Shown here in pieces: positions 28,003 through 30,018 of a DNA stretch of 64,000 nt. The notes beneath the pieces are model-generated. The model did not search any database. It saw nothing but the letters and a program-made list of their open reading frames with translations, and was not told the DNA's origin. A program made the position numbers and the translations under genes. The stretch is taken from NCBI RefSeq assembly GCF_044324875.1, contig NZ_CP172185.1. One strand, 5' to 3'. How positions within the stretch are numbered: position 1 is the first letter of the stretch; each line of letters opens with the position of its first letter. Source of the stretch: Escherichia coli. Its GTDB lineage: Bacteria > Pseudomonadota > Gammaproteobacteria > Enterobacterales > Enterobacteriaceae.

Positions 28003-28410
28003 GTTCACAGATAAAACACTCTCCAGGAAACCCGGGGCGGTTCATATCGGTGCTGCTGCTGTTATTTTTTGTTGTATTTGTGACGAATGGTTAAGAATAA
28101 AACATGAGTTGGTGATTATCAGGACAGGTTGCTTGTATATGAAGATAACAAAGGCGGCATTTATTTTTGCGCTGTCAGTGTGGAGTGTTGCTGTGATATG
28201 TCTTTTATTATTTGTACTGGTTGTTCTGGGATAGCTATAGTGGAATTATTATTTTTTTAAGACTATGGTTTATATTTTTATTCGGCAATATTTCTGTAAA
28301 CAATTAAATATCAGAAAGGCGTGTTGTATGCGTGAACACGCCTGAGTATGTATACAGAGATTGTTAATTTGGAGAGAATAATTACAGTTGTTATTTATTT
28401 GACGTCCTGA

Positions 28411-28695
28411 TTAGTGAAAAAACCAGTCATCAGCAGTTTCCCAGACTTCCTGCAGCGTTTCCTGTATGAACTTCTGAGCGTTTTCTTTATCTACGGCTCT
28501 TAAAATGGTCAGTCCGTCATTACTGGCGGATTTTACTATAACCTCCACATCGTCATATCGTTTTCTGGTACGGCGAGACATTTCCTGTTGTAGAGCAGGT
28601 ACAGAGCCTTTTGGCATTTTGCTGAATTTTTCTTTAGCGATACAGATCTCAATACGAATAAAAGTCCCTCTGCACTGTGTTATTTTTATCTGCAT
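28411..28695 (-). CDS. Small hypothetical protein in AT-rich inter-IS region
   Basis: 94-aa ORF (possible start at [10 protein letters not shown]...); no family recognised; could be spurious. Confidence 0.25.
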
Positions 28696-30018
28696 GAATA
28701 AACAGTGTCAATAGATAAGATTGGTTGTAAGGAATCAATGGAGCATGTATGGGACATTTTTAACCGACTAAATTCACAGAAGTTCGTAGGCATCGAAAAC
28801 GAATCATCTGTCCAACCCTTTAAAAACGGCTCTCTTGGACGATTTTCGTCGTTTTTTAAAATGCAACAAGTACGTTGTTCATATGATTTCATTCCATCTC
28901 ATGGGACTGGCGCTACCTTTGTTTGATCTCCCTTGGTATGAGAATTTTTCTGAAATTTTTGGACATTTAGTAGGGTTCTGGTCCATTGAAATTGTTCGCA
29001 GATATTTACGAAACAGAATTACTCATGAGCCAGACCTTGAGATCCATTTAGGCTCAAACAGATAATGTATTGAATTATAAAAATGGCGCAAATACAGTGC
29101 CATTTTTATGGGGTAAATGTTACTTATTTCCTTCTGATACAGGAGAAAAAAGGTCTGATGCAGGTAGCCAATGAGCCTGTAACTCCACTTCGATACTGTA
29201 GAACTGGAGATTTCTACGGAGGAAGACACGTTGTTGCTGGAAGTGAGGAGAAATCTCGGGTGATGTTGAATCATGTTAATACATCAGTAGCACTGGATAT
29301 CGGGAGAACGGTACTACCAGAGGGACAGCATACGCCCGCTACAGTTTGGCGGGCGTAAGGGCATTAAGATTTTTAGAGAGAGCGTTCAGAATTCTGTGTC
29401 ACGTTAAAAATTCTACAGTGTCATCACAGTATTCAGTCGCCCTTCAAAATAAATGGCTAACTGCGACAATGTCAAATTCCAGCTCTGGATCGGCATTGTC
29501 CATTTTTTCTGTACGTTCATCAGCCCCAGATAAAGCAGCTTCTACAGACTATTTTCATTCGGGAAAGCACCTTTGGTTTTGGTCAGTTTCCTGAACTGGC
29601 GATGGACTGATTCAATCGCATTTGTGGTGTAAATGACCTTGCGGATATTTGCCGGATAGCGGAAGTATGCTGACAGGTTTTCCCACTTGCGACGCCACGA
29701 CTGAAGCACCACCGGATATTGCTGGCCCCATTTCGCCTCCAGCTCATCCAGCGCCGTTTCTGCGGCTTCTTTCGACACCGCGCGATATACCGGCTTCAGG
29801 TCGGCCATGAACGCTTTGTGGTGTTTTGCCCTCCAGATTCAGCGCCAGCACCGTGTAAACGACCTTGCTCTGGTAGCGGCCATCCTCCCTGATTTTATAG
29901 TGAATGGCATCCAGCCATACGAAGGGGTAAACCTTCTCCAGCGGGCGCTGTTGCCACTGTTTTAACTCAGGAATGACCTTAGTAAGCGTACAGCGAGGGC
30001 CGTATTGACGGGGATGTG

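Follow-up and report, generated by a model that had tools for sequence, protein, structure and literature searches.

What does the AT-rich DNA lying between two insertion sequences (IS) in this stretch of Escherichia coli DNA hold: a gene disrupted by a frameshift, small toxin-like peptides, or cargo in decay? An earlier note on the window (the whole stretch of 64,000 nucleotides that was analyzed) had raised all three options and had held that none of the ORFs could be assigned. Our results point to the third, and the segment very probably represents non-functional remnants of lambdoid prophage right ends, caught between two later IS insertions. The suggestion of decayed cargo was in substance correct, the segment being built from leftover pieces of genes and prophage ends, and the frameshifted gene, the unassignable ORFs, and the toxin-like peptides fell away. 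Specifically, the segment holds no frameshifted gene and no recognizable toxin locus, and is ordinary decayed prophage cargo. The significance is correspondingly small: one "frameshifted gene / toxin" candidate is removed, and a messy inter-IS stretch is annotated base by base.

Insertion sequences and the setting of the segment

The general description of the segment was borne out. Its GC content is 0.34-0.45, versus 0.53-0.56 in the flanking IS DNA, and insertion sequences bound it on both sides, each with a target duplication. The four ORFs that had been named are all present in the ORF list, specifically, one of 31 codons (28139-28234, plus strand), one of 94 aa (28411-28695, minus strand), one at 28705/28738-28926 (plus strand), and one of 76 aa with a TTG start (28835-29065, plus strand). 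The bounding elements are as follows.

26735-28044, plus strand: IS3-family (IS629-like) element of 1310 bp with OrfA and OrfB, the left boundary
29378-32901, minus strand: IS256-family element, the right boundary, identified by its ORFs and by BLAST to another IS256-family copy
29982-32423: ISEc8-like IS66-family element nested in the IS256-family element, with an 8-bp duplication, TGACCTTA

The IS629-like element, whose relatives carry the RefSeq annotation "IS3 family transposase," is flanked by a 3-bp target duplication, TAT (26732-26734 and 28045-28047), and a homologue (L001) runs uninterrupted across the insertion point, reading GTGATATCGGTGC. The IS256-family element is flanked by an 8-bp duplication, TTTTTAGA, read directly at 29370-29377 and 32902-32909. 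Given these target-site duplications and the uninterrupted relatives, both elements are best regarded as simple insertions.

With a cut-off of 25 aa, the segment contains 16 ORFs and its dinucleotide shuffles 15.9 +/- 2.9, so that the count is that expected by chance; the longest ORF reached 94 aa or more in 18% of the shuffles. What rises above chance is homology: the 94-aa ORF is DinI-like by its family matches, and the 76-aa ORF carries the C-terminus of DUF1440/YagU in its 3' part, so that the statement that none could be assigned no longer stands. At the DNA level, 28044-28681 is about 99% identical to E. coli prophage right ends (about 92% over 28044-28861), in which the series runs YadA-like gene, HTH gene, DinI-like gene, chromosome.

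On this reading, from left to right, the segment opens with the terminal 200 bp of a cargo module that encodes an Eib-type adhesin and an HTH regulator. Next come a minus-strand, LexA-type dinI-like gene, with a terminator, promoter, and operators of its own, and a phage attachment-side arm that ends in an abrupt junction. Beyond this lie the final 62 codons of a yagU gene with their terminator, followed by what is left of a tail-fiber-assembly gene (tfa), a rotted 3' end that would have adjoined a phage alpha/beta-hydrolase cargo gene until the IS256-family element inserted. The host locus would be a degraded island or prophage adjoining potB in the E. coli chromosome, where the chromosomal neighbors are potB, potA, pepT, roxA, phoQP, and purB. 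Decay is also visible nearby, in a ykgJ-like gene with two in-frame stop codons.

The adhesin-module tail and its 31-codon ORF

The leftmost part of the segment belongs to a module whose genes lie on the other side of the IS629-like element.

24596-26197: Eib-like (YadA-like) adhesin gene
26259-26714: sigma-like HTH gene
28046-28246, plus strand: 3' tail of the Eib-like adhesin plus HTH module, T-rich, non-annotated DNA
28139-28234, plus strand: the 31-codon ORF, MKITKAAFIFALSVWSVAVICLLLFVLVVLG, with two lysines and then 26 uninterrupted hydrophobic residues, a candidate small membrane protein

Among 5426 complete E. coli genomes, 183 carry the module tail, each in a copy at least 95% identical, and every copy among the matches listed lacks RefSeq annotation there. 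In approximately 160 of the 183 genomes, module homology ends at the equivalent of 28246, with unrelated DNA beyond. The 31-codon ORF always accompanies the adhesin/regulator module, and the module boundary falls 12 nt past its stop codon.

These observations raise the possibility that the ORF, at the module's 3' end, is co-transcribed with the module and encodes a genuine small protein of the inner membrane, an accessory peptide of lysogenic conversion whose activity may be membrane-perturbing and toxin-like. Its favor is found in an MKxxK N-terminus that precedes the 26-residue hydrophobic stretch, a GRAVY of 2.26, T at 61% of second codon positions, the constant company of the module, and a boundary just after the stop. 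None of 2000 shuffles of the spacer reached this hydrophobicity, and when the ORF alone was shuffled and kept free of stops, 0.08% did; these figures overstate its significance, as the ORF was picked out for being hydrophobic. Further, the ORF is unbroken in every copy inspected, with the only variants seen being hydrophobic-to-hydrophobic, and a second hydrophobic mini-ORF (25 codons) lies just upstream in intact copies, split here by IS629. Against this, the ORF lies on a T-rich strand, RefSeq leaves it unannotated in the copies listed, and it had no match in Pfam, NCBIfam, PHROGs, or Rfam. A poor Shine-Dalgarno sequence, AGG, precedes it at the rather long distance of 10 nt, RNA folds at the ORF, on the mRNA and antisense sides, gave z = -0.66, -1.07, and +1.04 (none significant), and promoter-like matches numbered 4 against 3.6 expected, in a consensus scan that an antisense RNA could escape.

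The distribution of the ORF also counts against a genuine protein. No diverged homologue was found among 5.8 billion proteins, where a search with a 40-aa version returned three near-identical clusters only, nor among 1.84 billion representatives, where an exhaustive HMMER search returned a single match. A distant DNA search found no copies below 95% identity in E. coli genomes, and phage records contained none. The neighboring HTH gene is as invariant, with all of its protein homologues at least 94% identical, and a search anchored on that gene found one near-identical viral contig. On balance, we consider a co-transcribed accessory protein improbable; the likeliest reading of the 31-codon ORF is T-rich DNA that is not translated, or else a small membrane peptide.

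Nothing in the data marks this ORF as a toxin. The toxin-like peptides suggested earlier drew no positive support: the family searches were blank, no RNA structure was significant, promoter-like matches stood at chance, and Rfam gave no toxin or antitoxin RNA family up to an E value of 1. E. coli has several small hydrophobic proteins, type I toxins among them, such as Hok, Ldr, TisB, Ibs, ShoB, and YohP-like proteins. The ORF resembles these peptides in its length (31 aa) and its single predicted membrane span, but differs from them in having no family match, partner RNA family, significant RNA structure, or wider distribution.

As for the second part of that most likely reading, that the 31-codon and 25-codon hydrophobic ORFs represent an unannotated small membrane peptide of the Eib-type adhesin/HTH module is doubtful; possible roles would be an aid to adhesin biogenesis or regulation, or that of a membrane-active peptide. 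If true, such a peptide would be present in approximately 3% of complete E. coli genomes, and a never-annotated, transmembrane-like ORF of 31 codons that travels with Eib-type adhesin modules makes a cheap target for small-protein validation. The frame-specific transmembrane-like signal, the intactness, and the boundary just after the stop are hard to square with pure noise. We also considered the two hydrophobic mini-ORFs as remnants of a larger membrane-protein gene, which no homologue supports. A preprint on EibG contained nothing on small ORFs downstream.

The DinI-like gene and its operator

The minus strand of the segment carries the following.

28411-28659, minus strand: prophage DinI-like gene of 82 codons (Pfam PF06183, PHROG 189, PDB 1GHH)
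28660-28711, minus strand: dinI promoter/operator, found by a promoter scan, with the -35 TTGACA (28711-28706), a -10, and the Shine-Dalgarno sequence AGAGGGA
28707-28688, minus strand: SOS box 1, with GCAG in place of ACAG in its right half
28317-28343, minus strand: hairpin, then UUUCUGAUAUUU, probably terminating the dinI-like gene (MFE -12.4 kcal/mol, z = -2.47)

The 94-aa ORF (to 28695) is the DinI-like gene with 12 extra codons of promoter DNA upstream of the -10. PF06183 matched this ORF along its full length (profile positions 1-63 of 63; 65.9 bits, cut-off 24.2; E 4e-18), and PHROG 189 matched the protein with an E value of 1.8e-25. Residues 2-81 align with residues 2-79 of 1GHH (E = 4e-12), and the acidic C-terminal helix aligns with that of E. 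coli DinI, including QETWE(S/T)ADDWF. The NCBIfam model for the DinI equivalog, NF007893, scored 65.2 bits in an alignment starting at residue 13 of the ORF; given that this lies under the equivalog cut-off of 111, we regard the gene as a DinI-like prophage paralogue and not as dinI itself.

In Gifsy prophages of Salmonella, a dinI homologue heads operons under LexA control (PMC3121763). The window gene resembles these operons, as well as ORF85 of BP-4795 and H0001 of VT1-Sakai, for which an SOS box and a promoter are annotated, in protein family, length, and -35/-10 layout, in its position on the minus strand just inside the att-side arm, and in having a CTG-N10-CAG operator between the -35 and the -10. 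It differs from them in its ATT start and in the deletion of the operator downstream of the -10. In the window, the terminator directly follows the dinI-like gene, with its hairpin 68 nt past the minus-strand stop codon, and no antirepressor or YkgJ/IrsA-type gene is found there.

The start codon is ATT, versus ATG in all five homologues examined, and a deletion of 13-14 bp, with its scar at 28676/28677, has removed SOS box 2. Two CTG-N10-CAG boxes are present in four of the five homologues, with BP-4795 having the downstream one only; the window keeps one, and the box lost is the one annotated as a "putative SOS box" in VT1-Sakai. Neither the canonical start nor the full LexA operators of the relatives are therefore found in this copy. 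Every Megablast alignment with the 99%-identical prophages is interrupted at 28678-28681, and both lesions are absent from every one of those copies. The dN/dS of the gene against distant phage copies is 0.12-0.18, and relative to its closest relative, the window copy carries M1I and I31T with no synonymous change.

One could argue that the gene still functions, with the loss of box 2 raising transcription and the ATT start lowering translation, to yield a low-level, less SOS-dependent modulator of the RecA filament. The coding sequence is otherwise intact at 82 codons, with no stop or frameshift, its acidic helix remains alignable to that of E. coli, and the -35, -10, Shine-Dalgarno sequence, one box, and terminator have all been kept. 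We nonetheless judge this unlikely, given that the ATG is universal and both boxes nearly so in the homologues, that both substitutions relative to the closest relative are non-synonymous, that the lesions are private to the window copy while neighboring genes are decaying too, and that AUU-type starts are generally weak. Non-AUG starts such as AUU lower initiation efficiency roughly hundred-fold. The preferred reading is that this DinI-like copy is in early decay. With an ATT start and one LexA operator lost, SOS control of its transcription would probably be weaker and its translation very inefficient, as far as can be judged from its sequence. Low-level initiation does occur from ATT, and with the Shine-Dalgarno sequence, the -35, the -10, and one LexA box kept, some activity may persist.

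The junction, the yagU stub, and the tail-fiber-assembly remnant

To the right of the dinI promoter, the segment passes from phage DNA into a chromosomal gene fragment and back to phage-derived DNA.

28712-28861: lambdoid prophage right end, attachment-side arm with ATGGGGCAT-type repeats, carrying the spurious 28738 ORF
28862-28874: junction of 13 nt between prophage DNA and the yagU stub, aligning convincingly with neither side
28875-29065, plus strand: yagU (DUF1440) 3' stub, codons 143-204 plus stop, with the YagU reading from 28877
29075-29111, plus strand: yagU terminator hairpin (MFE -17.8 kcal/mol, z = -4.57, a value reached by 0 of 200 shuffles)
29140-29322, plus strand: decayed tfa 3' end, inside a 91-aa ORF (29083-29358)
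29331-29357: GC-rich hairpin (MFE -22.5 and -20.5 kcal/mol on the two strands, z about -3.4)
32920-33705: alpha/beta-hydrolase gene, beyond the IS256-family element

The ORFs at 28738-28926 and 28835-29065 had been proposed to be two frames of one disrupted gene, and they do share a strand and overlap by 92 nt. Their sources differ, however, and meet at the 13-nt junction. The upstream part comes from the prophage arm: homology to BP-4795 and other phage records ends at 28861, within approximately 10-80 bases of the ends of those records, and the annotated att site of VT1-Sakai starts about 9 bp past the equivalent position. Read in the frame of the 28738 ORF, which has no family match, the arm gives dN/dS values of 0.72, 1.15, and 0.89 against three phage relatives, near 1 and indicating no purifying selection. 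The downstream part, whose homology starts at 28875, corresponds to YagU residues 143-204 only, and the 28738 ORF runs out of frame into it past the arm. Because the two ORFs come from different sources across a recombination junction, a single gene broken by a frameshift is hardly credible. The ORF stretches at 28738-28926, 28835-28876, and 29083-29358 are instead accidents of reading across joints.

The identity of the yagU stub is clear: residues 143-204 of K-12 YagU match the window at 85% identity (tblastn, E = 4e-30), residues 1-142 had no tblastn match anywhere in the window, and PF07274 reached 35.0 bits against the 76-aa ORF (cut-off 34.7), covering profile positions 95-135 of 135 and so not full-length. 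Relative to K-12, the stub carries nine non-synonymous and four synonymous changes (dN/dS 0.61, from small counts), with radical replacements of P by H, P by L, W by G, and D by Y, and its frame gives no sign of purifying selection. The terminator hairpin, with an 11-nt perfect inverted repeat, aligns with that of K-12 and is conserved. The best DNA identity of the stub to E. coli yagU was 93% across the 5426 complete genomes, and a plasmid search returned ordinary yagU matches only. Exact-pattern contig scans for the source of the stub found no match, even with a 27-mer identical in the K-12 copy.

The junction itself occurs in none of the 5426 complete E. coli genomes. A chromosomal gene fragment abutting the end of prophage DNA recalls the split yehV of VT1-Sakai and the icd 3' pseudogene beside e14, a displaced gene stub at a prophage junction. 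Unlike those stubs, the one in the window has no matching 5' part and no recognizable att core, so that site-specific integration is no more than one candidate origin. We considered 28862-28874 as a secondary att site for a yehV-type integrase; its likeness to the VT1-Sakai core is weak, with K-12 yagU agreeing at 7 of 20 positions by eye. Given this weak likeness and the absence of the yagU 5' part, the junction may have arisen by secondary-site integration, illegitimate recombination, or deletion, the data being compatible with each.

Beyond the yagU terminator, residues 131-192 of an intact prophage Tfa match the window at 35% identity (tblastn, E = 1e-7), with 76% identity at the DNA level to that tfa 3' end. 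Approximately the last 62 residues are recognizable and the stop codon has been lost, leaving no intact ORF; neither Pfam nor PHROGs matched the remnant. The GC-rich hairpin lies between this remnant and the convergent alpha/beta-hydrolase gene. The target duplication of the IS256-family element, together with prophage homologues L006 and L007, indicates that the tfa remnant was once contiguous with the hydrolase region. Neither the yagU nor the tfa piece is still a living gene; both are drifting neutrally.

This arrangement has a counterpart in K-12, where homology to the yagU-ykgJ region runs continuously from yagU codon 143 through the stop and the terminator hairpin into a tfa-like spacer. 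The window differs in retaining only the yagU 3' stub, with identity falling from 93% to about 80%, and in having the hydrolase gene and IS elements before the ykgJ-like pseudogene. It also lies beside potB, whereas the K-12 locus lies beside pao and the ecp genes. Rfam catalogues the K-12 yagU-ykgJ spacer as the candidate RNA IS009 (RF02111), whose full model matched the tfa remnant at 96.4 bits (E = 2e-22), under its gathering score of 117; the remnant is homologous to that spacer. Literature on IS009 and yagU offered nothing informative. The K-12 spacer matches the same region of Tfa, and the IS009 RNA candidate of K-12 looks like a relic of a phage tail-fiber-assembly gene. If so, ykgJ would be placed at the right end of an ancient prophage, which may be useful to annotators.

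Composition of the segment and its boundaries

The four ORFs named in the earlier note were all found where it had placed them, and the stretch at 28046-29385 is indeed AT-rich (GC of 0.34-0.45 versus 0.53-0.56 in the flanks), with an insertion sequence at both ends. The number of ORFs is at chance level (16 versus 15.9 +/- 2.9 in shuffles), and a longest ORF of 94 aa was reached in 18% of shuffles; thus, the case stands on homology, rather than on the presence of ORFs. The pieces, with the four ORFs, are as follows.

Features of the segment and its boundaries
26735-28044: IS3-family, IS629-like element (1310 bp), the left boundary, with TAT on either side
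28046-28246: tail of the adhesin/HTH module, holding the 31-codon ORF (28139-28234, +)
28247-28861: dinI module and phage arm, with the 94-aa ORF (28411-28695, -) and the start of the ORF at 28738-28926 (+)
28862-28874: junction of 13 nt, with a convincing match to neither flank
From 28875: yagU 3' stub (codons 143-204 and the stop codon), then a terminator hairpin; ORF at 28835-29065 (+)
29378-32901: IS256-family element, the right boundary, with TTTTTAGA as an 8-bp duplication on either side
29982-32423: ISEc8-like IS66-family element (2442 bp), splitting the IS256-family element, with 8-bp duplication TGACCTTA

The IS256-family and inner IS66-family insertions are clean nested transpositions, and at the insertion point of the IS629-like element, an uninterrupted relative reads ...GTGATATCGGTGC....

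On its left, the segment has genes for a YadA-like (Eib-type) adhesin and a sigma-like HTH protein. Rightward of the IS elements come genes for an alpha/beta-hydrolase and a YkgJ-like protein, potB, potA, pepT, roxA, a satellite-like island, phoQP, and purB. Many E. coli prophages have the order tail fibre, YadA-like, HTH, DinI-like, chromosome. From these neighbours and this order, the segment is degraded prophage right-end DNA beside potB. Hence, the suspicion of decayed cargo was borne out, specifically as decayed prophage cargo whose pieces are identified by homology; two of the four ORFs, all previously held to be unassignable, can be assigned. The components are all of known kinds, and only the 31-codon ORF is left as a candidate.

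A damaged dinI-like gene, a phage arm, and a yagU stub

The 94-aa ORF encodes a DinI-like protein (Pfam, 4e-18; PHROG 189, 2e-25; PDB 1GHH, 4e-12) of a family under strong purifying selection between phages (dN/dS 0.12-0.18). RefSeq gives an 82-codon version in relatives, and the NCBIfam alignment begins at residue 13; the 12 extra codons are promoter DNA, since their ATG sits between the -35 and -10 elements. The copy in the window is damaged: it begins with ATT in place of the ATG of five relatives, and it carries I31T. Further, a 13-14 bp deletion at 28676/28677 took out the SOS box downstream of the -10 element, the one annotated in VT1-Sakai, and the SOS box that was kept has changed from ACAG to GCAG. 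Megablast matches to 99%-identical copies all end at the deletion, so the lesions seem confined to this one sequence. The gene is followed by a hairpin and its U-rich tail and lacks a downstream partner gene, in contrast to the LexA-controlled operons headed by a dinI homologue in Gifsy prophages (PMC3121763).

Past the dinI promoter, homology to phage records runs near their termini and ends at 28861, with the VT1-Sakai att site starting about 9 bp beyond the equivalent position. The ORF from 28738 sits on this arm and is non-coding, given in-frame dN/dS values of 0.72, 1.15, and 0.89 against three relatives. This ORF and that from 28835, read previously as possibly two frames of one disrupted gene, span the joint between the phage arm and the yagU stub, and there is no frameshifted gene. 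The joint could reflect secondary-site integration, illegitimate recombination, or deletion, among which we set no order. It occurs in no other complete genome; the window holds no reciprocal junction, and the 5' part of yagU was found nowhere within it. Species-wide exact-pattern scans for the yagU-like stub returned no match, not even for a 27-mer identical in the K-12 copy, and no complete E. coli genome exceeds 93% identity to it. Relative to K-12, the stub has nine non-synonymous and four synonymous differences (dN/dS 0.61), several being radical replacements, a substitution pattern that fits a dead stub.

Beyond the yagU terminator, a tail-fibre-assembly gene survives as a decayed 3' end (35% protein and 76% DNA similarity to residues 131-192 of intact Tfa), and the remainder to 29377 is spacer and a hairpin ahead of the convergent phage hydrolase gene. 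The relic at 29071-29288 is also present in the K-12 yagU-ykgJ spacer (3192-3438 of L003, the K-12 sequence used for comparison), which explains a match, at 96 bits and under the gathering score, to the Rfam family IS009 (RF02111), catalogued from that spacer. In both the window and K-12, the IS009 region, a candidate RNA, shares homology with the 3' terminus of a phage gene for tail-fibre assembly, which suggests that core-genome ykgJ sits at the right end of a relic prophage. Continuity across the IS256-family element follows from its target duplication and from prophages ordered tfa, hydrolase, ykgJ-like, dinI.

The adhesin/HTH module and the 31-codon ORF

Of 5426 complete E. coli genomes, 183 carry the tail at 28046-28246, each with an identity of at least 95% and none with an annotation for it; in most of the 183, homology stops at the equivalent of 28246, with unrelated DNA beyond. 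The sigma-70 region-4-like HTH protein (26259-26714, +), encoded 3' of the adhesin gene, is essentially without diverged homologues (13 clusters, all at least 94% identical and nearly all from E. coli); the adhesin/HTH/tail module thus appears young and narrowly distributed. The adhesin, a trimeric autotransporter (24596-26197, +), carries an internal stretch of about 37 residues in two tandem copies and, at 533 aa, is longer than the 369-436 aa annotated in relatives. Intact copies have another hydrophobic mini-ORF (25 codons; MLNNVSYIVISVLLLLFFVVFVTNG), which begins with GTG and overlaps the HTH gene's end; in the window, it is cut in two by the IS629-like insertion (26704-26734 and 28048-28094), and it has no homologue among 1.84 billion representative proteins.

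The peptide read from the 31-codon ORF has two lysines ahead of 26 hydrophobic residues (GRAVY 2.26); the ORF has T at 61% of second codon positions and a weak Shine-Dalgarno sequence. When the spacer was dinucleotide-shuffled 2000 times, no shuffle attained this GRAVY, and when the ORF's own bases were shuffled free of stops, 0.08% did, figures weakened by the ORF having been chosen for its hydrophobicity. It has no diverged homologue, with three near-identical clusters in 5.8 billion proteins and one match in 1.84 billion representatives, and the HTH gene beside it is equally invariant. We consider it an unlikely candidate for a real small membrane protein, and a toxin is much less likely again. 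The toxin-like peptides suggested earlier as a possibility found no backing in Pfam, NCBIfam, or PHROGs families, in Rfam, or in significant RNA structure.

Neighbouring genes and the roxA-phoQ island

Relatives of the roxA-phoQ island (about 39638-49300) encode an integrase, an Icd-like protein, a RepA-type helicase, and SSB, as well as major capsid, head decoration, and small terminase proteins, a gene set that, going by annotation of the homologous locus only, resembles a capsid-forming phage satellite. Adjoining potB, a copy of a YkgJ-family (cysteine-cluster) gene (34274-34603, -; 80% protein identity to K-12 YkgJ) is a pseudogene, having two in-frame stop codons; in strain P15-385, the same position, here the right end of a complete prophage, holds an intact copy. 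The alpha/beta-fold hydrolase gene (32920-33705, -) is intact (261 aa; PHROG esterase/lipase, 2e-28), and several E. coli prophages carry a version 85-89% identical in DNA as cargo between their tail-fibre and ykgJ-like/dinI genes.
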